27,465 bases of DNA, from the NCBI GenBank assembly GCA_038061115.1, contig JBBTZY010000165.1, forward strand, positions 1 through 27,465, in the 5' to 3' direction. The notes under the pieces were generated by a model. That model was not told the DNA's origin. It ran no database searches and saw nothing but the letters and a program-made list of their open reading frames with translations. The stretch is from Patescibacteria group bacterium. Lineage in GTDB: Bacteria; Patescibacteriota; Patescibacteriia; Veblenbacterales; UBA10138. This document shows, piece after piece, positions 8,199-24,550 of the stretch. The translations under genes and the position numbers were made by a program. Numbering within the stretch: position 1 is the stretch's first letter; every line of letters begins with the position of its first letter.

Positions 8199-8200
8199 TA

Positions 8201-8293
8201 TTTTAGAAGCTAGAATATAGAAGTTAGAATCTAGAATTCGGACTGTCTGGCTTCGCCAGATCTCGCGAAGTGATGATACTTATCTAAATTCGA
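8201..8293. repeat. GATAAGT-core heptamer hairpin element (reverse orientation, truncated) with a 31-nt nested insert
   Basis: The reverse complement matches 20492-20547 apart from an insert at 8246-8276 (containing TCTGGC-TTC-GCCAGA) in the core. Confidence 0.8.
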
Positions 8294-8297
8294 CGCC

Positions 8298-8400
8298 CTA
8301 AATCCGAAATCCGAAACTCTAAATTCAAATGTTTAATAACTTTTTTGGATTTTAGTCATTAGGATTTATTTAGGATTTAGAAATTAGGATTTAGGATTTT
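8298..8400. repeat. AAATCC/GGATTT heptamer hairpin element with AAATGTTTAA core
   Basis: AAATCCG/CTAAAT arms versus TTAGGAT arms; core at 8327-8336. Confidence 0.8.
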
Positions 8401-8406
8401 TATTAC

Positions 8407-8432
8407 TGGATTCCCGCTTTCGCGGGAATGAC
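8407..8432. repeat. REP-like palindrome ATTCCC-N8-GGGAAT (dRS3/RPE-like)
   Basis: TGG-ATTCCC-GCTTTCGC-GGGAAT-GAC; sister copies at 13385 and 23178. Confidence 0.88.
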
Positions 8433-8475
8433 AACCGCTACTTAACTCTTACTCTAAGCTCTTACTCTTACTAAC

Positions 8476-9075
8476 CTACCCTCCAACCAACTTCGCTTGA
8501 ATCAATTCCTTAAGTTTACTCCAATCTTCTACTTTCTCACCATTCAAGAAAAAAGTTGGTGTACCATTTACATTTCTTTTATCCCCTTCTTTCATTTCCT
8601 CACGCACCACTTTATTTTTAGCACGTGAATCAAGACAAGCCGCAAAATCATCCGCCTTAAGTCCAAGCTGACCAGCGTAGGCCTTTAAGTCTTCGGGTGA
8701 AAATTGCGGTTGCTTCTCAAACAAAATATCGTGGTATTCCCAAAATTTACCTTGATCATTAGCACATTCGGAGGCCAGTGCCGCACGGAAGGCCTGCGTG
8801 TGAATAGTAAGTAAAGGGAAATGACGATAGCTAAATTTTATTCTACCGCCTAAAGTTTCAATCAAATCCTTAACTATTGGTTGAGCCGCTTTACAAGCTG
8901 GGCATTGAAAATCAGAAAATTCTTCCACCACCACACTTGAATCAGCTAATCCTAAAAATGGTCGGGGTGAATTTACCTCCGGGTATTTTGGTGTATCGGT
9001 TTTACTAAATTGCCACAAACCAATTAAAACTACTACTATTACAACTAGGGCAATAATTAAATTTTTCTTATTCAT
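8476..9075 (-). CDS. DsbA-family thiol-disulfide oxidoreductase (CPAC), N-terminal TM anchor
   Basis: EFSDFQCPAC, YRHFPL, and the cis-Pro loop GTPTFF. Confidence 0.92.
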   Translation of the reverse strand: MNKKNLIIALVVIVVVLIGLWQFSKTDTPKYPEVNSPRPFLGLADSSVVVEEFSDFQCPACKAAQPIVKDLIETLGGRIKFSYRHFPLLTIHTQAFRAALASECANDQGKFWEYHDILFEKQPQFSPEDLKAYAGQLGLKADDFAACLDSRAKNKVVREEMKEGDKRNVNGTPTFFLNGEKVEDWSKLKELIQAKLVGG

Positions 9076-9087
9076 AGTTGAATTATA

Positions 9088-9214
9088 TTAAATTCTAAAT
9101 ACTAATATCTAAACTCTAAACAATATCAAAACCCAAAATTAAAATGTTTAAAACTTTTGAATTTTACATATTTGGATTTATTTAGGATTTAGTGCTTCGG
9201 ATTTAGGATTTTAA
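9088..9214. repeat. AAATGTTTAA-core hairpin element; apparent gene-less copy of the four-helix-bundle cassette
   Basis: 9115-9130 TCTAAACAATATCAAA equals the start context of the 21415-21783 gene; 9142-9153 AAATGTTTAAAA equals its stop context. Confidence 0.8.
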
Positions 9215-9218
9215 CATC

Positions 9219-9995
9219 TTACTTCGCCAACTCTTGATCCACCACGGCTTTCAACTGTTCAAACGGCACGGCGCCCTCCACGGGAGTACCATTTACAAAT
9301 GTAGTTGGCGTACCACCTACCCCAAAACCAGCCCCCTCTTGTAAATCAGTTTGTACTTTGGCGGCAAATTCGCCGTCATCTAAACATTTCTGAAATTTGG
9401 TTTGATCCACACCTACTTCTTTTGCTAGCGGGCCAAGCTTATCCAAAGCAAAACCAGTACCACCAACGGTGCTGCGTTCAAAAATTTTATCAATAAAACT
9501 CCAATACTTGTCAGCCCCACCCAACTTGCCTACGCATTCCGAAGCTTCGGCCTCTTTTTGAGCATTAGCGTGGAATGATAATGGGAAGTGACGGTAAATT
9601 AAACGCACCTTACCTTTGTAATCATTCATTAACTTAAGCACACCCGGATGAAATCTTTTACAAAATGGGCATTCTAAATCAGAGTACGTAATTACAGTAA
9701 CCGGCGCATTTTTACTACCACGAATATAATCTGATGATTTTACTTTAATGTCTTGCTTCCCAAGAGGTGGTGGAGGCACCTCTCCACCCGGCGCATTAGG
9801 CACACCGGCTTGTGGCGATGGATTAACTGCCAAATTATTACCGAGTTTTGCTAATAACCCTGGGGTGGCGGAAGTAGCTATTAGCACAAAACCAATTAAA
9901 CTCACAGCCGCTACACCGCTAACTAACCCCATAATAAAAGTAAACTTGGGTGAAGCGCCGGCAAACAAACTTGGCTTGTTGTAAAGTTCAGACAT
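9219..9995 (-). CDS. DsbA-family thiol-disulfide oxidoreductase (CPFC), TM anchor and Pro-rich linker
   Basis: YSDLECPFC, YRHFPLSFH, GGTPTTF. Confidence 0.92.
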   Translation of the reverse strand: MSELYNKPSLFAGASPKFTFIMGLVSGVAAVSLIGFVLIATSATPGLLAKLGNNLAVNPSPQAGVPNAPGGEVPPPPLGKQDIKVKSSDYIRGSKNAPVTVITYSDLECPFCKRFHPGVLKLMNDYKGKVRLIYRHFPLSFHANAQKEAEASECVGKLGGADKYWSFIDKIFERSTVGGTGFALDKLGPLAKEVGVDQTKFQKCLDDGEFAAKVQTDLQEGAGFGVGGTPTTFVNGTPVEGAVPFEQLKAVVDQELAK

Positions 9996-10098
9996 AAATT
10001 GATGTGAATAATAAATAAATGGTTAAATAAAGTATTTTAAGTATAACATAAAATTTTAAATGCCAAAAGGATATGTTTTAAATCTGAAATCCGAATAT

Positions 10099-10198
10099 CT
10101 AAATCTTATTCATTAGAACACTAGAGCATTTAAACATTAGAACATTATTAATAAAAAACTTTTTGTTCTTATGATCTAGTGATCTAATGTTCTAGTGA
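10099..10198. repeat. 8-nt-period (TAGAACAT/TAGAACAC) hairpin element, copy A
   Basis: About 95% identical to the reverse complement of 11711-11809. Confidence 0.88.
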
Positions 10199-10210
10199 TA
10201 ATTATTACAC

Positions 10211-10924
10211 TCATTTACTAAACCTTTCTTTAATCGCCGCTTGGATAATTTTTTGCCAATCATTTTTACTTATTACGCCTTCAATTTTACGCCCATTCAC
10301 AAACCAAGTGGGCGTACCACGCACTCCGGCGCGAAAGCCAGCTTCTAAATCATCTTTCATTTCCATTAAACCACTTTTATTATTACGACAAGTCTCAAAA
10401 GCAGTTAAATCTAATTTTAGATTTTTAGCCAATTCATCATAAAGCGCCTCGCTTAATTTTTCTTGACTTCCAAATAATAAATCATGATACTCCCAGAATT
10501 TTTTTTGCTTAGCAGCACAATTTGCTGCCACAGCTGCCGATACAGCTTGGGCATGAATTTCAACCACTGGATAATCACGATAAATTAAACGCACCGCCTC
10601 AGAATTATTTTTAGCTACGGCGCGAATGATTGGCGCGGCCGCGCGACAATACGGACATTCAAAATCACCAAATTCCACTATTACCACTGGTGCATCGGTT
10701 GGGCCGAGCTGGGGATCATCGGTAGTTTCAACTTGTACCAAACCTTGATTTTTAGCTTCGCTTTGCCCCGGACGCACCGTAAAACCAGTGCCCGTAATTT
10801 GACCCGGCCACAACCAATTAAATAACACCGGCACGCCAAACCAAAAAATGATGAGAATAATAAGCCACAGCCACCAATGGTGGAACCAGGACTTAGATGT
10901 GTTCGAAAAAATATTGATTGACAT
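10211..10924 (-). CDS. DsbA-family thiol-disulfide oxidoreductase (CPYC), TM anchor
   Basis: FGDFECPYC, YRDYP, RGTPTWF. Confidence 0.92.
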   Translation of the reverse strand: MSINIFSNTSKSWFHHWWLWLIILIIFWFGVPVLFNWLWPGQITGTGFTVRPGQSEAKNQGLVQVETTDDPQLGPTDAPVVIVEFGDFECPYCRAAAPIIRAVAKNNSEAVRLIYRDYPVVEIHAQAVSAAVAANCAAKQKKFWEYHDLLFGSQEKLSEALYDELAKNLKLDLTAFETCRNNKSGLMEMKDDLEAGFRAGVRGTPTWFVNGRKIEGVISKNDWQKIIQAAIKERFSK

Positions 10925-10954
10925 AGTTATAAATATTAAATCCTAAATCATTAC

Positions 10955-11040
10955 GTCTCGAATCACGAATAACGAATTACGAATCAAGATAAGTACTACT
11001 AACATTCGTGATTCTTAATTCTTGATTCTAGATTCGGGAC
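10955..11040. repeat. 86-nt GATAAGT-core heptamer hairpin element
   Basis: GTCTCGAA-(ACGAAT-type 7-mers)-AGATAAGTAC-(ATTCTT-type 7-mers)-TTCGGGAC. Confidence 0.88.
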
Positions 11041-11050
11041 AAATCGTCTA

Positions 11051-11077
11051 TGAATTCCGAATTAAATCCGGAATGAT
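11051..11077. repeat. Degenerate ATTCC...GGAATGA REP variant
   Basis: ATTCC-GAATTAAATCC-GGAAT-GA; same ends as the ATTCCC-N8-GGGAAT-GAC copies with a 1-nt longer centre. Confidence 0.5.
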
Positions 11078-11112
11078 AAAAATATTAACTCCCACTATAT
11101 CCTCTTATTAAA

Positions 11113-11685
11113 CTACACCTTCTTCTTCAACTGTCTTCGAATATAAATATTCAGCCCCACAATTACCGCCACCACAATCCCCGCCGCGAGAGTTACATCG
11201 CGTAATGCATGTTGTAGTACCGAAAAACTGGCGCCAAATACGTAACCTAGTAAGCTAAATAAAATCGCCCACAGTAAACTAACTGGTACATCAACTTTAA
11301 GAAATTCACGCCAACTCATTTGAGCAATTCCCGCCACAATTATCGAAGCGTGACCAAAACTATAAATAAATTTAGTGACAAATAATGTCTTTTTGCCATT
11401 CTCAGCAAAATGCCCTTCCAACCACTGTAAACGGTTGCGAGTAATCCACAGCACTCGGCCCCAGCGTAGCAAACAAGCTCGCCCCCATTTTCGCGCTATC
11501 CAAAACCAAATTATATCACCAATCACCGCACCCACAAAAGTTATTAAAATTACTAACCACAATTCAAGTAGCCCGAGCGACGCCGCCGCACCAGCCACTA
11601 GTGGAAAAATTTCACCTTCCACCACCACACCTAAAAAAAGTAGTGGGTAACCGTATTGGACAATAAGAGCGAGAATGGTTTCCAT
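11113..11685 (-). CDS. DedA/SNARE-associated family membrane protein
   Basis: VEGEIFP, GAVIGDIIWFWIARKWG, typical DedA hydrophobic layout, 190 aa. Confidence 0.88.
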   Translation of the reverse strand: METILALIVQYGYPLLFLGVVVEGEIFPLVAGAAASLGLLELWLVILITFVGAVIGDIIWFWIARKWGRACLLRWGRVLWITRNRLQWLEGHFAENGKKTLFVTKFIYSFGHASIIVAGIAQMSWREFLKVDVPVSLLWAILFSLLGYVFGASFSVLQHALRDVTLAAGIVVAVIVGLNIYIRRQLKKKV

Positions 11686-11710
11686 GGTTGTTTAGTAAGA
11701 GTAATAATTT

Positions 11711-11809
11711 TCACTAGAACATTAAATCACTAGAACATAAGAACAAAAAGTTTTTTATTAAAATGTTCTAATGTTTAAGTGTTCTAGTGTTCTAATGAAT
11801 AAGATTTAG
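11711..11809. repeat. 8-nt-period hairpin element, copy B (inverted relative to copy A)
   Basis: 4 substitutions plus 1 indel versus the reverse complement of 10099-10198; overlaps the gatA stop. Confidence 0.88.
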
Positions 11810-13275
11810 GATTTTATTTCTGGTGTTAACTTTATCCACTCTGTTGCCTGTTCATAATTATACGCCACTTTCAAAATCTTCTCTTCCTGCCACATATTGC
11901 CAATCAACTGTAACCCTACTGGTAATCCATCTGATAATCCACAGGGCACGGAAATAGCTGGCAACCCTGCGATATTCACGGGCACAGTATAAACATCAGC
12001 CAAATACATAGCGAGTGGATCTTGATTTTTACTCCCCAGCTCAAAAGCGGTAGTTGGTGTAGTTGGTGTGGCGAGTATATCTACTTCTTTAAATACGCGA
12101 TTAAAGTCATTCTTAATTGCTTGGCGTGCGGCGAGGGCTGACTTATAATAAGCATCATAATAACCAGCTGATAAAACAAATGTGCCTAGCATTATGCGAC
12201 GTTTTACTTCGCGTCCAAAAAGTTCGCCCCGAGTTTTCGCTAAAGTACTTAACAAATCTGCTTCTCTTAAACTTTCTCCATATTTCAAACCATCAAAGCG
12301 CGCTAAATTTGTACTCACTTCGGCTGGACATAAAATATAATAAGCGGCCAGAGCATACGGCATGCTTGGCAAACTAACGGGGATAATTTCCGCGCCCAAC
12401 TCGGCTAATTTATCAATCGCCTCTTCAACTACTTTTTTTACATCGGCTGATAATCCTTCGCCAAAAAATTCTTTAGGCACACCAATTTTTATTTTTTTAA
12501 TATCTTTATTTAATAATGATGGATAATCAGGCACTACTGATTTGACACTCGTGGCGTCTTTTTCATCAAATCCTGCTATTATTTTTAGTAATAATGCGGC
12601 ATCGGCTACAGTATGAGTAAAAGGCCCAACTTGATCAAGTGACGAAGTCATCGCCATTATACCAAAACGTGACACTCGACCATAAGTTGGTTTAAGACCA
12701 ACCACACCACAAAATGCCGCGGGTTGACGAATGGATCCGCCCGTATCAGTGCCTAGCGCTATAGGTGCAAATCCAGCCGCTACCGCCGCCGCGCTACCGC
12801 TAGATGAACCACCGGGTACGCGAAGTACATCCCACGGATTATGGGTCGGAAAAAATCCTGAATTCTCTCCTGAAGCGCCCATGGCAAATTCATCGCAATT
12901 AGTTTTACCAATTACTATTGCGCCAGCATTTTCTAACTTCTCTACTACCGTAGCTGAATATGGCGGTACATAATTTTTTAAAATTTTAGAACCAGCGGTA
13001 GTAGTTATGCCGCGGGTTACAATAATATCTTTGACCGCGATTGGTACGCCAGCCAGTTCGCCTGCTTCTTCACCGCTAGCAATTTTTTCATCAATTTCAT
13101 CGGCTCGACTTAATGCTTGCTCTGAAGCCAAAGTTAAATAAACACCTAATGATTTTTTAGACGTAAAATCAGCCGTTGATTTTTTTAAATAATCAGATAC
13201 TACCTCACGTGCAGTCACAGCTTGTGATTTTATTTTCTGACTTAATTCAGATAAATTGTATTGGGTTAAAGACAT
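11806..13275 (-). CDS. gatA: Asp/Glu-tRNA(Asn/Gln) amidotransferase subunit A
   Basis: Amidase signature PGGSSSGSAAAVA, GTDTGGSIRQPA, EVKRRIMLGTFVLSAGYYDAYY. ATG 13275 is preferred over TTG 13290. Confidence 0.97.
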   Translation of the reverse strand: MSLTQYNLSELSQKIKSQAVTAREVVSDYLKKSTADFTSKKSLGVYLTLASEQALSRADEIDEKIASGEEAGELAGVPIAVKDIIVTRGITTTAGSKILKNYVPPYSATVVEKLENAGAIVIGKTNCDEFAMGASGENSGFFPTHNPWDVLRVPGGSSSGSAAAVAAGFAPIALGTDTGGSIRQPAAFCGVVGLKPTYGRVSRFGIMAMTSSLDQVGPFTHTVADAALLLKIIAGFDEKDATSVKSVVPDYPSLLNKDIKKIKIGVPKEFFGEGLSADVKKVVEEAIDKLAELGAEIIPVSLPSMPYALAAYYILCPAEVSTNLARFDGLKYGESLREADLLSTLAKTRGELFGREVKRRIMLGTFVLSAGYYDAYYKSALAARQAIKNDFNRVFKEVDILATPTTPTTAFELGSKNQDPLAMYLADVYTVPVNIAGLPAISVPCGLSDGLPVGLQLIGNMWQEEKILKVAYNYEQATEWIKLTPEIKS

Positions 13276-13290
13276 AGTATTTAATTTCAA

Positions 13291-13380
13291 ATCAAATCCA
13301 AATAACTAAATGTTTAAAAATTTTGAATTTGTGATTTTGGATTTATTTGTGATTTAGGGTTTCGGATTTAGGATTTTTTG
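13291..13380. repeat. AAATGTTTAA-core heptamer hairpin element
   Basis: Core at 13308-13317; right arm TTTGGATTT...TTCGGATTTAGGATTT. Confidence 0.75.
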
Positions 13381-13384
13381 TTCC

Positions 13385-13410
13385 TGGATTCCCGCCTCCG
13401 CGAGAATGAC
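13385..13410. repeat. REP-like palindrome ATTCCC-N8-GAGAAT (one mismatch)
   Basis: TGG-ATTCCC-GCCTCCGC-GAGAAT-GAC. Confidence 0.85.
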
Positions 13411-13426
13411 GACTACTACAAGTCAC

Positions 13427-13714
13427 CTACTCCCCAAATACTGGCGGAACTACTACCATATTATTTTCATTCTCGGGTGCTTGTTTAATTAATTCACTGC
13501 CCTCACCCCATACTTTTACTTCATCGGCCCGCGCTACATTTTTATAATTAACACCCGTGGCTTGTAGCTTGGTAACTGGCTTAACTTCCTGCACTTTCAC
13601 CACATAACCTAAAATACTCTGTAAATCTTCCGCCAGAGTACTTTTTTCCTTTGTATTTAACTCTAACCGCGCTAAATGAGCGAGTTTTTCTATATTAATA
13701 GTTTCAGTGGACAT
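13427..13714 (-). CDS. gatC: Asp/Glu-tRNA amidotransferase subunit C
   Basis: IEKLAHLARLEL...LQSILGYV...R.DEV...AP......VVP pattern; 95 aa; directly upstream of gatA. Confidence 0.95.
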   Translation of the reverse strand: MSTETINIEKLAHLARLELNTKEKSTLAEDLQSILGYVVKVQEVKPVTKLQATGVNYKNVARADEVKVWGEGSELIKQAPENENNMVVVPPVFGE

Positions 13715-13744
13715 AATGATATTGTAATGGAAAATTAGTAATAA

Positions 13745-13870
13745 TGGAATATAAAATTAAAATGACTAATGTCTAATTACTAATTTCTAAAAAAACCTAA
13801 ATTCAAATGTCTAATTTTAATAATTTTAGTTATTAGTCATTTTTAGAAATTAGAGCTTAGTTATTAGTGA
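13745..13870. repeat. CTAATTT/AAATTAG heptamer hairpin element
   Basis: AATGACTAA...CTAATTTCTAA left arm versus TTAGTCATT...TTAGAAATTAG right arm. Confidence 0.7.
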
Positions 13871-13871
13871 T

Positions 13872-15869
13872 TCAAACACTAATCATTCTCATTAATTCTT
13901 CCTCACTCAACACCTTCACTCCCAATTTCCTCGCTTTCTCCAATTTACTCCCCGCCTCTACGCCCGCCACCACGTAATCGGTTTTAACGCTTACACTCTC
14001 TGATACTTTGCCACCCGCAGCGATTATTTTTTGTTTCGCTTCATCACGCGTTAAATTTAATAATGTGCCAGTGAGCACAAAAGTTTTACCAACTAATCCA
14101 CCTGCTTGTTTTTTAGCGTCAGCAACTCGCACGCCATTTTTAAGTAAACGTTCAACTAACTGCTGACTTTTTTTATTATTTACAAATTCAAATAAACTTT
14201 GTGCTACCACTGGCCCTACATCACTAATTTTTTGAAATTCTGAAAATTCAACCGACATAAAATTGGCTAAACTTCCAAATTTTTCGGCTACCGCCCGTGC
14301 GGTTTGCTCACCCACATGCCTGATTCCCAAAGCATAAATAAATTTATCTAAAGAAATAGTACGCGCTTTATTTATTGCCTCAACTAATTTTACCGACGAT
14401 ACTTCGGCAAATCTTTCTAAGCCTACCAAATCAACTGGCTTAATAATAAATAAATCTGCCGCATCATGAATTTTACCTTCATCCATTAGTTGATCAATAA
14501 TTTGTGGGCCAAGTCCATCAATATTAAAAGCCGTACGCGATACAAAATGATACAAACCTTCGCGCCGTACACTTGGGCAATTTTTATTACTGCAATACCA
14601 CGCAACGAAATCTTCTTTTCTTTTGGTTTGCGAATTACAAACTGGGCAACTTTTAGGCATTTGCCAAATTTTTTCTTTCCCTGTTCGCAATTTAGGCAAT
14701 ACTTGCACTACATCAGGAATAATATCACCAGCTTTTTCAACAATCACTGTATCACCAATTCTAATATCAAGTCGTTTAATTTCATCTTCGTTATGCAAAG
14801 TAGCGCGCGATACCACAGAACCCGCAAGTTTTACTGGCGCAAGAACTGCCACTGGTGTAAGCACACCAGTACGCCCCACTTGAATAATAATATCTTGAAC
14901 TTGAGTGGTGCCTTGCTCCGCTGGGAATTTATAAGCTAACATCCATCTATCTGATTTTCCGACACTACCTAATTTCTTTTCTTGTTTAATGTCGTTCACC
15001 ACTAAAACCACACCATCGGTTTGATAAGGTAATTTCGCGCGAGAATTTTCCCATTGCTTTAAATATTTAGAAATAGATGACAAATCTGGAAGCGTTTTGC
15101 AATGAGGATTAGTTTTAAACCCGAGCTTATTTAATAACTCATGAACCTCAGCGTGTGTCGTTTGTCCTAAATCAGTCATCAATTCAAAGGCGTAAAATTC
15201 TAAATATCTCCCGGCAGTAATTTTAGGGTCAAGTTGACGAATTGTACCAGCCGCCAAATTACGCGGATTAGCAAAGGCAGGTAGATTATTTTTGCTTTGT
15301 ACTTGATTAATACGCTCCCATTCTTTTTTAGTAATTACCACTTCGCCCCGAATATCAAGGCGAGCTGGCAATTTTTTATTCATTTTTTCTAAAACCAGTG
15401 GCACACTTTCCATAGTACGCACGTTGCTGGTAACATCTTCCCCCCACTCGCCATCACCACGCGTAGCGGCACGTACTAATTGGCCATCTTGATATGTTAG
15501 CACCATTGATAACCCATCCATTTTTAATTCACCAAAATAGCCCAATATTTTGGCGCCCAGAATTTTTTCATTGCGCGTTTGCCAATCAGTGATTTCTTCT
15601 AAATCAAAAGCATCTTCAATTGAAATAATTGGCTGAAGATGTTTTACTTTTTTGAAATCAGGCGCAGGTTCACCGCCCACGCGCTGAGTGGGTGAATCAG
15701 CGGTAATAAATTCTGGGTATTCTTGTTCTAATTTATATAATTCGTGCTTTAAAGAATCAAGTGCCGAATCTGAAATAACCGGCTTATCGAGCACATGATA
15801 AAGATAGCGGTGGTGGTTGATTTCATCGCGTAGTTTTTTGATACGAATTTTGGTCTCACTTTTATTCAT
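13872..15869 (-). CDS. ligA: NAD-dependent DNA ligase
   Basis: Adenylation motif ELKMDG, NPRNLAAGTIRQLD, AYKFPAE, Zn finger CPVC...C....C, HhH region, BRCT (GKTFVLTGTL). Confidence 0.98.
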   Translation of the reverse strand: MNKSETKIRIKKLRDEINHHRYLYHVLDKPVISDSALDSLKHELYKLEQEYPEFITADSPTQRVGGEPAPDFKKVKHLQPIISIEDAFDLEEITDWQTRNEKILGAKILGYFGELKMDGLSMVLTYQDGQLVRAATRGDGEWGEDVTSNVRTMESVPLVLEKMNKKLPARLDIRGEVVITKKEWERINQVQSKNNLPAFANPRNLAAGTIRQLDPKITAGRYLEFYAFELMTDLGQTTHAEVHELLNKLGFKTNPHCKTLPDLSSISKYLKQWENSRAKLPYQTDGVVLVVNDIKQEKKLGSVGKSDRWMLAYKFPAEQGTTQVQDIIIQVGRTGVLTPVAVLAPVKLAGSVVSRATLHNEDEIKRLDIRIGDTVIVEKAGDIIPDVVQVLPKLRTGKEKIWQMPKSCPVCNSQTKRKEDFVAWYCSNKNCPSVRREGLYHFVSRTAFNIDGLGPQIIDQLMDEGKIHDAADLFIIKPVDLVGLERFAEVSSVKLVEAINKARTISLDKFIYALGIRHVGEQTARAVAEKFGSLANFMSVEFSEFQKISDVGPVVAQSLFEFVNNKKSQQLVERLLKNGVRVADAKKQAGGLVGKTFVLTGTLLNLTRDEAKQKIIAAGGKVSESVSVKTDYVVAGVEAGSKLEKARKLGVKVLSEEELMRMISV

Positions 15870-15889
15870 AATGAATAACTACTAATTGT

Positions 15890-16053
15890 ATTTAAATCCA
15901 AATTACAAAATCCAAATGTCAAATCAATATCAAATGAATAAATGACTAAATTTTGGGAATTGGGATTTGGGGCTTGGGAATTTAAGAGATTGCCACGCTC
16001 GTCTGATGACTCGCTCGCAATGACGTACTACGTGCTACCTGCTACCAGCTAAC
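15890..16053. repeat. Composite element: heptamer hairpin, GAGATTGC...CTCGCAATGAC REP (15986-16024) and CTAC-rich 7-mers
   Basis: Direct reading; the REP matches those at 17090, 19494 and inside pilD. Confidence 0.8.
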
Positions 16054-16905
16054 CTACTTTTTAACCTCCTGCTCCGAGAATAGTACATAATCAGCAATGC
16101 CATAAGCTGGGACAGAAGTAGGAATGCTAACTTGTACCGTATAACCCACATCGCCCTTTTTACCACGGGTTTTTAATTTTACATAATTATCAAATCCACA
16201 AATAACACAACCGTTGGGTATAATTTCTAAATCTTTAATATCACCACTAACTGCCCGAAAACGAACTTTTTGAGTAACCAACTGGGGAACATTAGGTGGA
16301 TCTAAACTAATAATTTGTCCTGTACATTGTCCTCCAGATGCGCCAGCACCACACGAATATGGTACGCCTATTGGATGTGGTTGACGTGTAACAATAGGTG
16401 TATTATCTGCAGTTTTATTAACATAAGTAATTACTAAGCTTGGATCAACGCCATCTCCCCGTTTCCAAGTAAACTGCAAACCAGTATAAGATCTTGGGTC
16501 AGCTGACGGAGGTGCTACATCAAGTTCAAAAGTTTGATCTGAAGATAAAATCGGCACACTAACATTGGGTGATGGAGAAAATGTTTGATTAAAATTTACT
16601 GATGTACAACCTAAATCAGAATTATCAACTGTTGAATTTACTGGACACTTTGGAGTATCGGCATCTGTAATAGGATTTATTTCGTTTAACTTCCTAGCAC
16701 TATATAACCCTTCTTCCAAAGCCGATTCGGCTTCGTAGTGCGCAATCATACCAGCATCTATCACCCGCGACTGACGAAGTTGGCTAGTCACAATTGAAGT
16801 CAAAGCCAAAGTTCCCACCATACCACCAGCGAGCATAAGGAGGGCGAGTAATAAAACATTGCCGCGGCGAGCAGTTGAACGATTATGAAAAAAGTTTATG
16901 AGCAT
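16054..16905 (-). CDS. PilX/GspK-like minor pilin
   Basis: Class III signal RRG|NVLLLALL without Glu5; AHYEAESALE PilX-type motif; 6 Cys. Confidence 0.8.
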   Translation of the reverse strand: MLINFFHNRSTARRGNVLLLALLMLAGGMVGTLALTSIVTSQLRQSRVIDAGMIAHYEAESALEEGLYSARKLNEINPITDADTPKCPVNSTVDNSDLGCTSVNFNQTFSPSPNVSVPILSSDQTFELDVAPPSADPRSYTGLQFTWKRGDGVDPSLVITYVNKTADNTPIVTRQPHPIGVPYSCGAGASGGQCTGQIISLDPPNVPQLVTQKVRFRAVSGDIKDLEIIPNGCVICGFDNYVKLKTRGKKGDVGYTVQVSIPTSVPAYGIADYVLFSEQEVKK

Positions 16906-16914
16906 AACTGTTTG

Positions 16915-17157
16915 AAAATTTCTAATTTCTAATCACTAATTTCTAAAAAATACTGAAATTTTTAATTTTAAATTTTTAATCAATAACTAAATGTTTAAAT
17001 ATTTTAAAATTAAGTCATCAAAAATTGATTTAAAATTATAAATTTAAAATTTAATCTTGGGGATTGGGATTTTGGTCTTGGGGATTTTTAAGATTGCTTC
17101 ACTCGTCTGATGACTCACTCGCAATGACTACCCGCTACGCGCTACTCGCTACCAACC
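16915..17157. repeat. Composite element: AT-rich heptamer arms, REP (17090-17128) and CGCTAC 7-mers
   Basis: AATAACTAAATGTTTAAA (16982-16999) is identical to 13301-13318; the REP is nearly identical to 15986-16024. Confidence 0.75.
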
Positions 17158-17757
17158 CTACCTAACATACGCTCTCGCCGACACGGTGGTTTGTAAATAA
17201 AACGCTTTAGTTTCAGATGGACGTGGATTTTTTGGTGCGTTGCTAGCTTTTAAAACTATGGTAACACGTGGTTGTTTGTCCTCTGTTGTTGACAATACAT
17301 TAGTAGGAAATGGATCAGTTAACGGTGAAACGTAAAATTGCAAATGTTCTACGGCTAAATTTTTTGAGGTGATAGATGAAACTGTGCCACCATCGCGACT
17401 TATCGTGGCACATTTATAAACTGTTCCACAAGTAACAGCGTCTGAATGAGCCAAAACCACAGGTGTACCAGATGGCGACTTAAGCGACAAAACATCTGTA
17501 TTTACAGGTAATGGCTGACCAGTATAATCAATAAAATCCGAGCGCACTTCCCGCGCGATTACTTCTAATAAATATCTAGCATCGGTAATTAATTCTTGAT
17601 TATCTCGCACCCTGCGCTGGGTAGTTTGCATATTCACAAAAATCCCGGCAATAAGTACACTGGCGAGAGCGAATAAGGCAAGAACGATTACGATTTCCAT
17701 TAGAGTGAAACCGGGGACACGCTTGGAAGTAAAAATATTAATCTTATAATTAAACAT
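17158..17757 (-). CDS. PilW/GspJ-like minor pilin
   Basis: G|FTLMEIVIV prepilin motif; ARYLLEVIAREVR; C-terminal LQTTVSAR; 2 Cys. Confidence 0.85.
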   Translation of the reverse strand: MFNYKINIFTSKRVPGFTLMEIVIVLALFALASVLIAGIFVNMQTTQRRVRDNQELITDARYLLEVIAREVRSDFIDYTGQPLPVNTDVLSLKSPSGTPVVLAHSDAVTCGTVYKCATISRDGGTVSSITSKNLAVEHLQFYVSPLTDPFPTNVLSTTEDKQPRVTIVLKASNAPKNPRPSETKAFYLQTTVSARAYVR

Positions 17758-17779
17758 AGTTTATATACCAATTATTTAT

Positions 17780-17865
17780 GTCTCGAATCTAGAAGCTAGA
17801 ATTTCGAATTTAGATAAGTACAGTACTAATTCTAGATTCTAACTTCTAGATTCTAGATTCTAATC
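17780..17865. repeat. 86-nt GATAAGT-core heptamer hairpin element (TAGAA type)
   Basis: GTCTCGAA...AGATAAGTACAG...TTCTAATC. Confidence 0.88.
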
Positions 17866-18577
17866 ACTTCCAATTATACAAATACTCCACCATACTCACG
17901 CTACTTCTACCCGAACCACCTAAAAGTCCGCTACGAGGCCAGGAAACGCGCGCTTCGGCTCGGATGCCGATTTTTGCATCAGTTCCATTACATTCTACCT
18001 TGGCCACATTTACATAAGAATCACCATCATCTTCTTGACACACGGGATCAAGGGCTAAAATGCGACGAAAATTACTATCTGTATAAGTATTATCAAAAAC
18101 CGAACCACTTTGTTGCCATAAATAACCATTCGCTTGACTACTGCGATACAAATGAATCTTAGTTTCGTCTAAAGAAGTTATTTCGCTTTCCTCACGTGAA
18201 TTATTATCAAAACTTACAAATTCAATACTAAACATTGCTGGATCAGGATCAACTGGTGGCTCAAAAACAACTACCGCCGCCTGATCATCATCATTTGGCA
18301 CCAAGCCAGTGTCCCACTGTGTGTCTGCTGGCGCGCTATTGCCAACTTTCAGCCAATTACTATCGCGAATATTACGCGCTACTTCAATAGCCTCACGCGC
18401 TAAATTCTGCCCGATTAATTGTTGATTACTCACGGTAGTGGCTTGGGTACTTTGCAAAGTCATCGCCATAAGGGCACCAAGCCCAACCATAATAATGCCG
18501 ATGGCCAACGTTGCTTCCAAAAGGCCTTGACCGGAAGGATATTTTTTATAGTGATTAGTAGTTGAAAAATTAAACAT
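17864..18577 (-). CDS. PilV/GspI-like minor pilin
   Basis: G|QGLLEATLAIGII with Glu5; NLAREAIEVARNIRDSNWL; 2 Cys. Confidence 0.85.
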   Translation of the reverse strand: MFNFSTTNHYKKYPSGQGLLEATLAIGIIMVGLGALMAMTLQSTQATTVSNQQLIGQNLAREAIEVARNIRDSNWLKVGNSAPADTQWDTGLVPNDDDQAAVVVFEPPVDPDPAMFSIEFVSFDNNSREESEITSLDETKIHLYRSSQANGYLWQQSGSVFDNTYTDSNFRRILALDPVCQEDDGDSYVNVAKVECNGTDAKIGIRAEARVSWPRSGLLGGSGRSSVSMVEYLYNWK

Positions 18578-18598
18578 ATTAGAGTGTAACTATAGATT

Positions 18599-18717
18599 GT
18601 TTCGAATTACGAATAACGAATTACGAATCAAGATAAGTACAATAAATCCCCCTCGCCCCCTTTTTTAAAGGGGGAATAACATTCGTGATTCTTAATTCTT
18701 GATTCTTTATTCGGGAC
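18599..18717. repeat. GATAAGT-core element (86 nt) with a 33-nt nested CCCCCTTTTTTAAAGGGGG REP
   Basis: About 91% identical to the reverse complement of 26515-26634. Confidence 0.88.
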
Positions 18718-18780
18718 AAATTTTATTTGCTAAACAATAATAACTAACTTTTATTTTTTAGTTAGATCTAAAACATAGTA

Positions 18781-19371
18781 CTACTCAATAAACACCTGCC
18801 CACTTAGTAAATTGATTTTTACTGTTTTTGTTTTTAATGTTTTTCTATGTTTTAAAGTAACGGTAACAGAATTAGCGCCATTTACCGTCCCTCCGTCGAA
18901 CCCGTCAATTTTAGACACCTCACTACCAGAAGTAAAAATCAAATCTAAAATTCCAGCACTTACGTTATTATCTTTCTTTTTTTCAAAAATAATGACATTA
19001 GAACCTAAATCAATATTTTGTACAACTACATCTGTGGTACTGAGATTATATTTATAATTATTATCAGCTGGTGGCGCATCATTATAATTACAATCCCCAA
19101 ACCACAGTGCAATGCTATTATCAGCCGAAATATTCAACCCAAACCCACCCAATGGAGCTGATTTTGGAACAGTGTTGCAAACCTCCTGCCCGCCGATCGC
19201 CGCGGCTTGAGCTTCACGCACTGCATTCTCCACTGCTTTAGCGCCGGCTTGCAATTCATCTGAATATTGTCCAGCGCGGAAATTCACCATCACCATTCCG
19301 CCAATCATCATAAAAATGCCAATGGATATTGTTAGCTCGAGGAGAGTAAAGCCGTGGCTATTTTTATACAT
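18781..19371 (-). CDS. FimT/GspH-like minor pilin
   Basis: MYKNSHG|FTLLELTISIG; C-terminal KINLLSGQV; the ORF-track extension to 19449 merely translates a repeat arm; 2 Cys. Confidence 0.85.
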   Translation of the reverse strand: MYKNSHGFTLLELTISIGIFMMIGGMVMVNFRAGQYSDELQAGAKAVENAVREAQAAAIGGQEVCNTVPKSAPLGGFGLNISADNSIALWFGDCNYNDAPPADNNYKYNLSTTDVVVQNIDLGSNVIIFEKKKDNNVSAGILDLIFTSGSEVSKIDGFDGGTVNGANSVTVTLKHRKTLKTKTVKINLLSGQVFIE

Positions 19372-19400
19372 AAAACTTAATTTTATAGAATGGATAATTT

Positions 19401-19479
19401 GTCTCGAAGCTAGAATATAGAAGTTAGAAGCTAGATAAGTACAGTCCAAATTCTAAATTCGAAATTCTAGCTTCTAAAC
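19401..19479. repeat. 79-nt (86 minus 7) GATAAGT-core element
   Basis: GTCTCGAA...AGATAAGTACAG...TTCTAAAC. Confidence 0.85.
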
Positions 19480-19493
19480 ACTTAGTAATCTAC

Positions 19494-19539
19494 GAGATTG
19501 CTTCGTCCCGCGCCTCTTCGGCGGGTCCTCGCAATGACA
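19494..19539. repeat. GAGATTGC...CTCGCAATGAC REP with an internal CCCGC/GCGGG stem
   Basis: Same termini as the copies at 15986 and 17090. Confidence 0.85.
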
Positions 19540-19579
19540 ATCACTGGTTGCTTAATTCTAGATTCTAACCACATTCATT

Positions 19580-20419
19580 TTACCATAAAATCCCCATATA
19601 CCATTGCCAAATTTTGTTACCCCATATCAGCCCAATTAACGCGGCTACTGTAAGAAACGCTCCCATTGGCAGTTTGGCGCCACGTTTTACTTTGCCCAAT
19701 AATAATAAAATAATGGAGATAATGGCACCGCCGATGTAAGCCATAAAAAAAGTGGTTAAAAGTAACTGCCAAGTGCCCAGCATTAAACCAATTAAAGCAC
19801 CGAGTCGAATATCACCATCGCCCACCCATTTACCTTTTGATACAAAGTATTGCGCGCCAAACCAAGCCGCACCAGCTAATCCTGCAATAAGTAAATTAGT
19901 AATGGAAACGCTGAGGAATAATTGTAAAATTATAACGATGACGATGGCAGGAATGGTAATTTGATCAGGCAAAATGTACCAACGAAAGTCGAACACAAAA
20001 AGAACGAGTAAAATGGTTACGAATACACCAAAAGTAGTAAAGACGAGCCAATCGTTAGGTGTCATTGCGAGGAGGACGCTCGAAGCGGACGACGTGACAA
20101 TCCCGTTACTAAATGTTGAGATTGCCGCGCTACGCCTGATGGCTTCGCTCGCAATGACAAACGCCACCACCCACAAAACACCGCTCGTAAGTTCCACTAG
20201 TGGATATTGCCAAGAGATTGGTTGTTTGCACGAAGCGCATTTCGCGCGTAAAAAAATAAAAGAAAGTAGCGGAATATTTTCAAACCATTTAAGTTGCCTT
20301 AAACACTTTGGACATTGCGAACGGCCAAGAATTGACTTGTCGTCTTTTAGGCGGAAGATAAGGACGTTGAGGAAACTACCTAAGCAAAGGCCGAAAGTGA
20401 AGATTAATAGAATAGTCAT
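19580..20419 (-). CDS. pilD: Prepilin peptidase/N-methyltransferase (A24) carrying a 33-aa in-frame REP insertion
   Basis: GSFLNVLIFR, Zn motifs CPKC and CASC, YPLVEL, catalytic Asp contexts FDFR and GDGD. Confidence 0.95.
   Translation of the reverse strand: MTILLIFTFGLCLGSFLNVLIFRLKDDKSILGRSQCPKCLRQLKWFENIPLLSFIFLRAKCASCKQPISWQYPLVELTSGVLWVVAFVIASEAIRRSAAISTFSNGIVTSSASSVLLAMTPNDWLVFTTFGVFVTILLVLFVFDFRWYILPDQITIPAIVIVIILQLFLSVSITNLLIAGLAGAAWFGAQYFVSKGKWVGDGDIRLGALIGLMLGTWQLLLTTFFMAYIGGAIISIILLLLGKVKRGAKLPMGAFLTVAALIGLIWGNKIWQWYMGILW
20060..20159. repeat. REP doublet inside pilD
   Basis: 12-bp perfect terminal inverted repeat TGTCATTGCGAG (20060-20071) / CTCGCAATGACA (20148-20159). Confidence 0.92.
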
Positions 20420-20454
20420 GAATACTAAGTAAATTTAACAATTAAATAAAATGC

Positions 20455-20547
20455 GTTTCGAATCTAGAGGCTAGAATATAGAATCTCGAATTTAGATAAG
20501 TGCAGTCCGAATTCTAGATTCTAACTTCTATATTCTAAATTCTAAAC
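20455..20547. repeat. 93-nt (86 plus 7) GATAAGT-core element
   Basis: GTTTCGAA...AGATAAGTGCAG...TTCTAAAC. Confidence 0.88.
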
Positions 20548-20621
20548 ATAATGTTTTAGCGACCAACACAATTCAGTATAACAACTTTTATATAATCTAG
20601 CACAATGTTACCGCCTATTCC

Positions 20622-20662
20622 ACAAAAACAAAAACCCTCCCCCGTGTGGACGGAAGAGGGTT
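20622..20662 (-). terminator. Strong terminator after the major pilin
   Basis: 13-bp stem (2 G.U) AACCCTCTTCCGT-CCAC-ACGGGGGAGGGTT followed by TTTGTTTTTG. Confidence 0.88.
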
Positions 20663-20676
20663 GAATGTTTTAAAAA

Positions 20677-21171
20677 TTAATTTGGAATACTACAAGCTCC
20701 CGTATCAATCACACCGCCTGGTTTTGCACAATAAATAGATCCCTTAATTAAACTATTACCAGTTGTTTCTGGTACAAATTCAATACCATAAGCTGAACCA
20801 GTTGCATTACTAGTATATTTATAATCAGTTCCAGAGCTTGCACTTGGGTCAGCAGGAACTTTAGCCATATATACTGGATCAATACAAGCACTAGCTAAAA
20901 AACCATTAGTCGGCGTTCCTCCTAAACATTTATAATTACCTTCTCCTAACACTTGGGCAGCTAAAAGCGCAGCAGAAAATGGATAATAAGTTTTATCAGT
21001 ATAATACAATTCCAAAGCTGTTTGAACTGATTTAATATCACTCAAACGTACTGCATCTCTTCCTTTTTCTCTTGCCCCTTGAAACGACACCACCGCTAGG
21101 GTGGACAAGACGCCGATGATGGCGATAACCACCAAGAGTTCTATCAACGTAAAACCTTTACGAATGTTCAT
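20677..21171 (-). CDS. Probable major type IV pilin (GspG-like CPR pilin)
   Basis: KG|FTLIELLVVIAIIGVL, RDAVRLSDIKSVQTALELYY, 4 Cys; has its own promoter, SD and terminator. Confidence 0.9.
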   Translation of the reverse strand: MNIRKGFTLIELLVVIAIIGVLSTLAVVSFQGAREKGRDAVRLSDIKSVQTALELYYTDKTYYPFSAALLAAQVLGEGNYKCLGGTPTNGFLASACIDPVYMAKVPADPSASSGTDYKYTSNATGSAYGIEFVPETTGNSLIKGSIYCAKPGGVIDTGACSIPN

Positions 21172-21221
21172 TGTCTCACCCCCTTTCCTTTAATAGTTAC
21201 TTAGCTAAACTTATTATAGCA
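21172..21221 (-). promoter_or_regulatory. Extended -10 promoter and Shine-Dalgarno site of the pilin
   Basis: TGCTATAAT at 21221-21213; AAGGAAAGGGGGTGAGACA immediately before ATG 21171. Confidence 0.75.
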
Positions 21222-21254
21222 CAAATCAAGAATTAAAAGCCAACTGTAAATAAA

Positions 21255-21825
21255 ATCTCAAAAATTCTAAATCCTAATACCTAAATACTAAACAAATCCC
21301 CGCCTACCTAAAGCCACAAAATATTGCCCTTATTCTAAGTAGCTTATACCACGCCATAAATTATTTAATGTAAACTATTTGAGGCCTTAGGCGGGCAGGC
21401 AAAATTCTAAAATTTTAAACATTTGGCTTAGATTTTTCTATAATTGCTCCAAAAATCTTCATTAATTCAGTAACTTCCTGTATAAGTTTATCTTTGCTAG
21501 TATTCATTTCTGGTAATACTTCAGCTAATTGTAGCCAAAAACGAGTTTCTTTGGCTTCCTTACGGGAAATTTTAATACGCATTAAAAAATCTTTTCTACT
21601 CAACGCTTCGTTTGCTTCTAAATAATTTGCGCCAATTGAACTAGCTGAACGCACTAACTGTTTTCCATATTCTTTATTAGGAACCGTGAGTGGTAATTTA
21701 TTAACATAAATAGCAACTTCTTTTGCAAAATACAGCGTTCTATTTTCTAAATCATACTGTTTTGAATTTTGAATTTCGGTCATTTGATATTGTTTAGAAT
21801 TTAGGGTTTAGTGCTTAGGATTTTA
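21255..21825. mobile_element. Putative four-helix-bundle cassette bounded by heptamer inverted arms
   Basis: Arms 21255-21297 / 21401-21424 and 21784-21825 flank and overlap the gene; gene-less look-alikes occur elsewhere in the window. No transposase is present, so mobility is inferred. Confidence 0.5.
21415..21783 (-). CDS. Four helix bundle protein (23S rRNA IVP-like family)
   Basis: YDLENRTLYFA...QLVRSASSIGANYLEA...DFLMRIKISRKEAKETRFWL...ELMKIFGAI signature; 122 aa. Confidence 0.93.
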   Translation of the reverse strand: MTEIQNSKQYDLENRTLYFAKEVAIYVNKLPLTVPNKEYGKQLVRSASSIGANYLEANEALSRKDFLMRIKISRKEAKETRFWLQLAEVLPEMNTSKDKLIQEVTELMKIFGAIIEKSKPNV

Positions 21826-21827
21826 AT

Positions 21828-23036
21828 TTATGCTCCTGACGACAACCGATACATCGGAAGCAGTATCGCCGACACCATAAACCCTACCGATACGCCCATT
21901 ACCAACATTACCATTGGTTCAAGCAAAGTTACTAAATTAGCTACTAGGTTATTGGCTTCGCGAGTATAAAAATCGGATAAACGTTTAAATACTTCCTCGA
22001 GTCGCCCAGTTTTTTCACCCACAATCATCATTTGCGACACCATTGAAGGAATTACCTTGCTTTGCGAAAACACCGTGGCAATGGAATTTCCATCTTCTAC
22101 TTCTTTAATAGTTTGGTCAATAATATCTTTGAATACCGCATTGCCGACCACATCGGAAACAATCGCTAAACTGCGAGTTAAAGGCACACCACCAACAATT
22201 AGCGTGTACATTGAGCGAGTAAAGCGCACTAAATAAATATTTTGGTAAATTGTGCCAACCACTGGAATTTTAAGCTGAATTAAATGCCACAAATGTTTGC
22301 CCTGCGGAGTTTTTACACCAAAACGAAAACCAATACCACCACCCACTAGCATCATACCAAATAACCACCAAAAATTTCTTAAAAAATTACTAAAACCAAT
22401 GAGAATTCGGGTGGAAAGTGGCAAAGCCACACCTGATTCCACTAAAATAGAAGTGAGTTTCGGCACCACAAAAATCATCATCACTGCGCCAACCAAAAGT
22501 AAGCCACCCAAAATAAAGGCCGGATAAATCATCGCCCCGCGAATTTTACTTATCATATCGTAATTTTTTTCTTGCTCATCAGCCAAATAATTCAGCACTT
22601 CATCGAGCTTACCTGAGGTTTCACCACTCGCCACCATATTGATGTAAAAGTCAGAAAATACCTCGGGGTATTTAGCCAGCGTGGAGGAAAATTTGGCACC
22701 ACCTTCTACTTCATCGGCAATTTCGGAAATTATTACTTTTAATTTCGGATTGGTAGTTTGTTTTTCTAAAATTCTAAGCGCCTGCACAATTGGCACGGTG
22801 GCGGAAGCCATCACTGAAAGCTGACGCGACAGTACTACAATATCTTTAATTTTGATGCGGGAAAGCTGATTGCCAAATAAAAATTGAAAACGATTTACCT
22901 TTCTTTCTTCTACTGTAATAGGAGTAAGGCCTTTGTCGGTTAAAATTTCTACCGCCGCCTCATGCGACGCCGCATCGATCATACCCTTTAGGGCACGACC
23001 TTCTAAATCTTTAGCTTCGTAGGAGAACAAGGACAT
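21828..23036 (-). CDS. pilC: Type IV pilus platform protein (T2SS F family)
   Basis: SRQLSVM...PIV.AL, GETSGKLDEVL, KIRGAMIYP, GEKTGRLEE, LLEPMVM; two F-family repeats. Confidence 0.95.
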   Translation of the reverse strand: MSLFSYEAKDLEGRALKGMIDAASHEAAVEILTDKGLTPITVEERKVNRFQFLFGNQLSRIKIKDIVVLSRQLSVMASATVPIVQALRILEKQTTNPKLKVIISEIADEVEGGAKFSSTLAKYPEVFSDFYINMVASGETSGKLDEVLNYLADEQEKNYDMISKIRGAMIYPAFILGGLLLVGAVMMIFVVPKLTSILVESGVALPLSTRILIGFSNFLRNFWWLFGMMLVGGGIGFRFGVKTPQGKHLWHLIQLKIPVVGTIYQNIYLVRFTRSMYTLIVGGVPLTRSLAIVSDVVGNAVFKDIIDQTIKEVEDGNSIATVFSQSKVIPSMVSQMMIVGEKTGRLEEVFKRLSDFYTREANNLVANLVTLLEPMVMLVMGVSVGFMVSAILLPMYRLSSGA

Positions 23037-23042
23037 AAAATT

Positions 23043-23262
23043 AAATCCGAAATCCGAAATCCGAAATCCTAAAAAAATCCAAAATCACAAATTTTAAAAA
23101 AATAATTTTAGTCATTAGGATTTGGAGTTTAGGATTTATTTGGGAATTAGTCATTAGGATTTAAGATTTTCTGTTTCTAGATTCCCGCCTCCGCGGGAAT
23201 GACAACTACTATAACTCTTACTCTATGCTCTTATTTATCCGCCGATGAGGCGTGACTCTTAC
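23043..23262. repeat. Composite element: AAATCCG heptamer hairpin, ATTCCC-N8-GGGAAT REP (23178-23203) and ACTCTT-type 7-mers
   Basis: Same module order as 8298-8475 and 13291-13425. Confidence 0.85.
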
Positions 23263-24335: not shown

Positions 24336-24394
24336 GGTAAGTTTCCTAGGACTATAAATAATTAATAAGTGGTTGTGGAATTTATATAAATTTT

Positions 24395-24480: not shown

Positions 24481-24550
24481 ACTAATTATCGTTCGATGAA
24501 TCTTAACGCTTATTTATTTTTTAACACTATAACAATCGGGCGTGCATAAC

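Follow-up and report, generated by a model that had tools for sequence, protein, structure and literature searches.

A four-helix-bundle gene enclosed by heptamer arms

The window is the whole 27,465-nt stretch of DNA that was analysed, contig C165 of a groundwater assembly of a Patescibacteria group bacterium (genome G000; 972 kb, 187 contigs, 37% G+C). In the spacer between its pilC and pilin genes lies a cassette, in which a gene for a 122-aa four-helix-bundle protein (21415–21783, minus strand) is enclosed by complementary arrays of 7-nt repeats, here called arms. Together with about fifteen gene-less hairpins in other spacers of the window, we read this cassette as a member of one family of hairpin elements, of the kind known from intervening sequences (IVS) of ribosomal RNA (rRNA), with the gene-less copies derived from the gene-bearing ones. 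To this explanation, taken as a whole, we assign a probability of roughly 0.6.

The encoded protein matches PF05635 (54.8 bits, cut-off 33.8; E = 1.3e-14) and TIGR02436 (74.9 bits, cut-off 24; E = 5e-21), and its nearest solved structure is PDB 2RLD (E = 1.2e-12), which was deposited with five chains. It carries a Q..R...S...N..E motif, and the family motif columns Q, R, S, N, E and E are invariant across all nine copies found in the genome; the R...S...N..E motif of the family has been described (PMC3936711). A first-pass annotation of the window had noted that the family shares its fold with Avd of the diversity-generating retroelements (DGRs). The fold is indeed common to both proteins. The gene itself, however, is not an Avd, since it does not reach the cut-off of the Avd model NF033474 and has no reverse transcriptase (RT) gene beside it.

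The 5' arm (21784–21830, minus strand) begins right at the end of the pilC (T2SSF) stop codon, comprises about five 7-nt units of the TAAnnnC type and stops 3–6 nt short of the ATG. Past the stop codon of the gene come a linker (AATTTTAGAATTTTG, 21400–21414, minus strand) that is common to the loops of gene-less hairpins, a nested GC-rich palindromic insert of about 100 nt (21298–21399, boundary ±1 nt) and a 3' arm of TTAGnAT-type units (approximately 21255–21297, minus strand). A contig from a second groundwater sample bridges the gene and the nested insert. The insert is missing from the cassette of G001, a sister species of the same genus (PilC 96% identical) that is syntenic across the whole window, and there the 3' arm lies 12 nt past the stop codon. 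Palindromes like this insert (CCTGCC...GGCAGG) adjoin TTAGGAT hairpins on contigs C61, C110, C126 and C173.

The duplex formed by the two arms has a predicted energy of −26.2 kcal/mol (z = −3.5), and none of 300 shuffles was equally stable. In the minimum free energy fold of the whole cassette, 34 pairs join the first and last 60 nt, arm to arm. The start and stop codons of the gene had been placed within the repeat arms by the first-pass annotation. Two words that recur elsewhere in the window do span these codons: the reverse complement of the 16-mer TCTAAACAATATCAAA (21782–21797) reaches into the ATG, and that of the 12-mer AAATGTTTAAAA (21413–21424) includes the TAA stop. The paired stem, however, consists of 21784–21830 with approximately 21255–21297, and the codons lie in the loop-side linkers.

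Gene-less hairpins of the same families

A gene-less hairpin of the same family as the window cassette lies at 9088–9214 (plus strand, opposite to the operon). It contains TCTAAACAATATCAAA at 9115–9130 and AAATGTTTAAAA at 9142–9153, both on the plus strand and separated by 11 nt, as against about 358 nt in the gene-bearing element. The loop thereby retains both the 5' junction (9115–9130) and the stop-codon region (9142–9166) of the cassette. Its fold is weak yet non-random (z = −2.8 on the minus strand and −1.8 on the plus strand). The 16-mer has only these two occurrences in the 972-kb genome, here and at the gene start. The 12-mer occurs 12 times, always between genes. For the 10-nt core AAATGTTTAA there are 36 occurrences, of which 25 are intergenic and about 20 lie in the apical loops of hairpins; this loop motif is confined to the genus. 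Within the window the core is present at 8327, 13308 and 16989, besides 9142 in the hairpin just described, and these coordinates, like all others in the first-pass annotation, proved exact.

Several further hairpins carry relics or arms of the same family. TTAGGAT arms enclose AAATGTTTAA in the loop of 8299–8402 (plus strand, word at 8327; z = −3.75) and AAATGTTTAAAA in the loop of 13291–13381 (plus strand, word at 13308), where the fold of 13285–13385 is weak (z = −0.9). The loop of 15890–15990 (plus strand) retains CAATATCAAATGA, a 13-mer at 15925 that equals the 5' junction of the cassette including its ATG, and the hairpin at 23041–23175 has AAATCCG/TTAGGAT units, the arm type of the window cassette. 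Elsewhere in the genome, a hairpin on C22 holds in its loop the 5' junction together with a 20-mer covering the stop, the three codons before it and nine bases after it.

Other gene-less hairpins of the window have different arms. One of the CGAATCA type at 24386–24490 (z = −5.8) has a gene-bearing relative on C57; another of this type, at 10955–11044, has further copies at 18598–18728 and 26504–26635, each with a small G/C-rich palindrome in the loop. Gene-bearing relatives on C41 exist both for the GTTCTAG type (11698–11809, z = −7.6; twin at 10099–10211) and for the TTTCTAA type (13752–13872; copy at 16915–17045). For the TCTAGAA type (17779–17866, z = −4.5; copies at 8199–8246, 19400–19487 and 20463–20548), they were found only in other genomes (G008 and G019).

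The spacers of the genome are repetitive and have a G+C content of about 20–30%. Hairpins were detected in 268 of its 668 spacers, compared with 11 after shuffling, and their arms show a tandem 7-nt period (lag-7 autocorrelation 0.46 versus about 0.27). Of the gene-less hairpins, 122 are periodic; 71 of these could be matched to the arms of a cassette resident in the genome (nine in all), and only 13 had no counterpart among the cassette arms known. Rfam contained no family matching the hairpins. The arm matches and the shared junction words place gene-bearing and gene-less hairpins in the same families, as the first-pass annotation had supposed.

Generality of the armed layout

A complete cassette opens with its 5' array, made up of four to five 7- or 8-nt units in tandem. 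A 115–150-aa four-helix-bundle gene starts a few bases from this array at most, and the reverse-complement array is found at the stop codon or just past it. Ten genes of the genome match PF05635, and all nine that are not DGR genes are enclosed by complementary arrays that reach up to, or into, their start and stop codons. The weakest match, on C121, is a true Avd (NF033474, 90.2 bits, cut-off 80), which stands beside an RT gene and lacks arms. One of the armed genes (C69:292–651; L005), with heptamer arms of the CAAC type, is inside the 5' part of a 16S rRNA gene and is a true IVS. The window copy sits between pilC and the pilin gene, not in an rRNA helix. When all 973 genes were ranked by the complementarity of their flanks, eight of the ten PF05635 genes fell within the top 36. 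The window gene ranks lower because the nested insert separates its stop codon from the 3' arm. Most of the other high scorers have two complete palindromes at their flanks, similar to repetitive extragenic palindromic (REP) sequences, and not half-hairpins.

A lack of such arms at other four-helix-bundle genes would have told against the first-pass annotation. Beyond the nine genomic copies, arms were found in 25 of 29 related genomes (one gene taken per genome). A many-phyla survey of four-helix-bundle loci, made in GTDB genomes with a single-protein search, gave arms in 52 of 71 loci (Bacteroidota, Omnitrophota, Planctomycetota, Proteobacteria, Atribacterota, Patescibacteria and others) versus 1 of 71 displaced control flanks. 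On cyanobacterial plasmids, 6 of 8 copies are bracketed by inverted heptamer arrays, and a seventh is flanked on either side by direct ones. Across 85 cassettes the arm period is 7 in 61, 8 in 13, 6 in a single case and 9 in none, with a median arm of 31 nt. The commonest triplet of the 5' arms is TAG, and stops in all three frames are present in 42 of the 85, compared with 13% of shuffles.

Of 31 cassette genes, 30 point the same way as their upstream neighbour and 29 the same way as their downstream neighbour, and the gaps have a median of 47 nt. Cassettes are sense-oriented and lie tightly between co-directional genes, and to judge from this arrangement they must therefore be transcribed with the operon. 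A 305-aa ParB-like gene (C171:17294–18211) was also seen between two complementary TTAGGAT half-arms, as if a housekeeping gene sat in the loop of a hairpin.

Cassettes at orthologous and non-orthologous sites

Comparison of the pilC–pilin spacer among relatives revealed filled and empty states of a single hairpin. In G000, G001 and G004 the gene is inside the same hairpin; in G013 the same arms occur without it. The G013 arm follows right after the pilC stop codon, is 84% identical to the 5' arm of the window cassette at the same position and ends in CTAAACAATAT; the 3' arm begins with ATTTGTTTAG, and a 23-nt loop replaces the gene. The gene-less hairpin is the same hairpin minus the gene in at least one orthologous spacer. 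The corresponding spacers of G011 and G017 hold genes of the same subfamily with different arm types, and that of G003 is bare (79 nt). In G005 (L014), a genome with no PF05635 match, the spacer reads MGRDFREQLRGKMDQL... after CACTAGA-type repeats and resembles a C41a-type cassette in decay.

The two sister species also differ at four other sites. The spacer at 24336–24550 of the window holds the gene-less CGAATCA hairpin in G000 and, in G001, a gene-bearing cassette with GTTCTAG arms. This GTTCTAG cassette is found in G000 with the same arms and 88% amino acid identity, on C41, which is a non-homologous site; at the G001 counterpart of the C41 site stands a gene-less hairpin with arms of a third type. 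At the C64 site, G001 has a whole cassette and G000 a small palindrome with no heptamer hairpin. At C60:4169–4789, a hicA/hicB-like toxin–antitoxin pair of G000 stands where G001 has a four-helix-bundle cassette. These comparisons of orthologous spacers bear out the filled/empty differences foreseen by the first-pass annotation, and show that gain, loss and replacement among related genomes involve the cassette as a whole, arms together with gene, and that the same unit sits at different sites.

We also noted that a cassette on C41 (approximately 8974–9573, compared with L072 of G001) is 100% identical between the two species together with its arms, the flanking genes being 76–96% identical. 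Either the block was transferred or converted recently, or the assembly is chimeric here.

Arm type, protein clade and selection

Arm similarity correlates with the identity of the proteins: not one of the 2000 permutations of a Mantel test gave a value as high as that observed. One clade keeps one arm type at non-homologous loci across different genera. Between the two origins that the first-pass annotation had proposed for the gene-less hairpins, "internally deleted derivative" fits better than "landing pad", because the arms travel with the gene and arm repeat and protein clade co-vary.

The cassette proteins have dN/dS ratios of 0.03–0.08, compared with 0.05 for pilC, and the window gene has a ratio of 0.08 against its G001 ortholog. 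At the level of sequence comparison, these proteins are kept by strong purifying selection, on par with pilC.

Candidate enzymes and alternative explanations

G000 has three or four RT genes in addition to its one true Avd. The Avd gene belongs to a DGR-like module (C121:171–1379; L010, L099), in which it is divergent from an RT gene split over two frames; further RT genes lie on C163 and C171. RT-dependent spread was considered and rejected, as the presence of an RT did not track cassette number in 40 relatives. No RT was found in G033, with 13 cassettes, or in G004, G011, G016 and G021, with 6 each, and G005, G003, G024 and G029 have an RT and no cassette. Mobilisation by an IS200-type transposase or a REP-associated tyrosine transposase (RAYT) was rejected as well: Y1_Tnp was found in only 9 of the 40 relatives, and the single G000 copy has no heptamer arms. 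A Y1 transposase was not found in the cassette carriers G001, G002, G004, G007, G012, G015, G016 and G021, and PF13366 was not found in the G000 genome. G000 does have a gene for RNase III.

Nine stand-alone GIY-YIG nuclease genes encoding 82–96 aa were found on C64, C135, C16, C123, C172, C89, C148, C184 and C81. They were rejected as cassette movers, being tied to GC-rich REP-like palindromes or tRNA genes and not to heptamer arms. Two of them are bracketed by inverted GTCATYC...GRATGAC palindromes, and four stand beside or between tRNA genes. The same REP-like repeat also occurs in the window, at approximately 8405–8430, 13385–13410 and 23180–23205.

The heptamer hairpins could instead be host elements older than the gene, acting as signals for RNA stability, processing or termination like the STRR (short tandemly repeated repetitive) sequences of cyanobacteria, with the gene a passenger that landed in their loops. 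Gene-less hairpins outnumber gene-bearing ones by about 15–25:1, and the loops accept other inserts, namely the nested GC-rich palindromes at 21298–21399, 18640–18680 and 26560–26590. Such hairpins have also been treated in print as possible transcript-stability or coupling elements (PMC2670836, PMC4692102). We nevertheless consider this origin unlikely, given that the arms move with the gene (as in the C64 spacer), that close relatives of a gene keep its arm type at different loci, and that RNA stability shows no strand asymmetry. Moreover, sampled genomes without the gene are nearly devoid of such hairpins: heptad hairpins occur in 12 of 19 sampled genomes with the gene and in 1 of 9 without it (Mann–Whitney p = 0.005). 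Alternatively, the hairpins may be moved in trans, in the manner of REP doublets forming hairpins (REPINs) or MITEs (miniature inverted-repeat transposable elements), by a conventional enzyme such as an IS200/RAYT-type tyrosine transposase, another transposase or a small nuclease, in which case the gene would be irrelevant to their spread. A gene between inverted copies of a genome-dispersed repeat is a REPIN/RAYT-like layout, and G000 holds one IS200-like Y1 transposase gene besides its nine small GIY-YIG genes. With the eight cassette carriers named above yielding no Y1 gene, the G000 copy without heptamer arms, the GIY-YIG genes belonging with other repeats and PF13366 not found, we regard such an enzyme as quite improbable.

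Retro-mobility of a DGR-like kind has been given still less weight. Here an Avd-like protein would recruit an RT to excised hairpin RNA, and the resulting complementary DNA would be integrated. The related Avd, which has the same fold, binds both nucleic acid and RT, its partners in DGRs being the RT and the template RNA; G000 does possess RTs and a true Avd. RT genes and cassettes, however, do not co-occur, and true Avd genes form a separate, armless and low-scoring subgroup beside RTs, so that we disfavour this route strongly. As for chance complementarity of low-complexity, AT-rich spacers, with a coincidental sharing of the 16-mer and the 12-mer, the repetitive spacers and the weak fold of some hairpins, such as 13285–13385, lend it a certain appeal, but it is refuted by the controls: the excess of hairpins over shuffled spacers, the near absence of arms at displaced flanks, the confinement of the 16-mer to two elements in the entire genome, and the persistence of the pattern in GC-rich arms of other phyla.

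Several observations weigh against the IVS-like explanation that we prefer. No movement, target-site duplication or clean empty site was seen at the junctions compared, and most "empty" orthologous spacers hold other sequence. The locus is present in four groundwater runs (X1–X4) only as assembler contigs that break at repeats, and the joints listed there are cross-joins between repeats; no excised or circular forms were found among these contigs, which cannot show rare forms. The pilC tree is a polytomy and gives no order of gain versus loss at the pilC–pilin spacer, although 4 of its 5 lineages hold a gene of the same subfamily there. Where co-directional genes flank a hairpin with AAATGTTTAA in its loop, the motif runs antisense to them in 16 spacers and in their own sense in 4, contrary to what is seen for gene-bearing cassettes. 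The association of gene and hairpins across sampled genomes rests on small samples and is uncorrected for relatedness, and G033, with its 13 cassettes, has no gene-less hairpin in 40 kb. On a plasmid of Pseudanabaena galeata (L205), a four-helix-bundle gene between cas6 and cas4 is accompanied by long heptamer arrays that are direct, not inverted (AAAGCTA ×14 and AAAGCCA ×10). Hairpin loops resemble the ends of open reading frames (ORFs) more than ORF interiors (26 versus 1 at a score of at least 11), a difference confounded by AT-rich composition; because ORF ends are AT-rich like the loops, we relied on long exact words to recognise loop relics. Finally, G·U asymmetry between sense and antisense RNA is absent (70 versus 73 of 147 hairpins), and there is therefore no sign of selection on transcript structure. 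Since RNA stability does not differ between the strands, the complementarity is either kept at the DNA level or simply young.

Proposed origin and relation to known elements

If the hairpins are indeed IVS-like cassettes with derived gene-less copies, a cassette would be co-transcribed with its operon, as the comparisons of gene order suggest, and its arms could pair in the transcript into a long stem that RNase III might cut, by analogy with rRNA IVS. The protein, which by homology is probably a pentameric ring, may bind its own arms, each subunit taking one of the tandem units. For an action of the protein on the hairpins, as the first-pass annotation had suggested, there is indirect support from the co-variation of arms and proteins, from the co-occurrence of gene and hairpins and from purifying selection. 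New copies might arise elsewhere through host replication or recombination at extruded hairpins, with no enzyme encoded by the element. The gene-less hairpins, by the comparisons given above, would be internally deleted derivatives that persist or spread in trans and that, in this genus, appear to have multiplied to 100–270 copies.

A bolder proposal can be made only tentatively. The four-helix-bundle pentamer might be a sequence-specific binder of tandem 7–8-nt units that drives the copying of its own cassette without a nuclease, transposase or RT of its own, and the gene-less heptamer hairpins of many bacteria (the cyanobacterial STRR, the GGGAATC arrays of Xanthomonas and the spacer hairpins studied here) might be its non-autonomous progeny. 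If this is true, the cassettes constitute a new class of mobile element. Two puzzles of about thirty years' standing meet in this one genome, namely the role of the conserved rRNA-IVS protein and the origin of intergenic heptamer hairpins in cyanobacteria, xanthomonads and others. Should the protein recognise its own repeats, one 120-aa protein and one 35-nt repeat array would make a simple, testable system, and would hint at a mode of DNA mobility without an obvious enzyme. On the practical side, cassettes split operons, cas operons included, and can mislead repeat finders and annotation.

The four-helix-bundle protein family was first found inside rRNA intervening sequences. ORF-bearing IVS of 23S rRNA, as in Leptospira and Coxiella burnetii (S23p), have been suspected of being mobile, and a part in this mobility has been proposed for the ORF (PMC4990558), and the family has since been recorded in rRNA insertions of the candidate phyla radiation (CPR) (PMC11270868) and between cas genes (PMC3936711). 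The cassettes resemble these IVS elements, which measure about 430–590 nt, in the protein family and in having the ORF in the loop of a terminal-inverted-repeat stem (PMC4990558), and one copy in this genome, on C69, is itself inside a 16S rRNA gene. They differ in lying between protein-coding operon genes, in having a large gene-less progeny, and in the strong purifying selection on their proteins, the Coxiella ORF being in decay.

The STRR heptamer hairpins of filamentous cyanobacteria and the GGGAATC/GGGGAYT arrays of Xanthomonas and Nostoc have been described with no associated gene named and no tie to a mobile element seen (PMC2670836, PMC4692102). Like the arms studied here, they consist of about four tandem 7-nt units, often in convergent pairs capable of forming hairpins, and are transcribed from positions between aligned genes (PMC2670836, PMC4692102). 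In our case, by contrast, the arrays bracket one gene family, and gene-less forms match resident gene-bearing ones.

The REPIN/RAYT system likewise has a single gene between inverted copies of its own repeat, gene-less copies in spacers and a separate repeat type for each gene lineage. The cassette gene, however, is a four-helix bundle with no known catalytic site and not a Y1 HUH transposase, and its repeats are tandem heptamer arrays instead of a conserved palindrome. Like MITEs such as the Correia elements of Neisseria, the gene-less hairpins are short, non-autonomous hairpin repeats of transcribed spacers, and they probably share with them an origin from a coding parent through internal deletion. 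RNase III cleaves the RNA of Correia elements. Unlike the parent of a MITE, the cassette encodes no transposase; no target-site duplication was seen, and the arm sequence varies strongly between families. To Avd of DGRs the window protein is related by its homologous fold and pentameric ring; it differs in its score below the Avd model cut-off, in having no RT neighbour and in a presence that does not track RT across genomes.

The first-pass annotation had called this the best candidate for an undescribed system in the window. The label is only partly right: rRNA ORF stem-loops, with the idea of their mobility, and gene-less heptamer hairpins are each already in print. We found no paper joining the four-helix-bundle gene to heptamer repeats.

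Further features of the window and genome

Every gene of the window is on the minus strand, and searches with the encoded proteins gave relatives from Patescibacteria/CPR. A type IV pilus operon occupies 17–27 kb and encodes PilB, a PilT-like protein, PilC/T2SSF, a pilin, a prepilin peptidase and minor pilins. Next come ligA, gatC, gatA, three DsbA-like genes, lgt and a tRNA gene.

In four groundwater metagenomes, arm sequences from the window (8000–8566, 20474–22174 and 22742–23308) reached a word depth 15–300 times that of unique DNA from the organism; the same arm families must therefore be common among other community members. We also observed a distinct dispersed repeat, about 170–230 nt long and with over a dozen copies at 75–91% identity (L074:405–577 and 1713–1949; C55, C103, C10, C145, C66, C171, C57, C126 and others).

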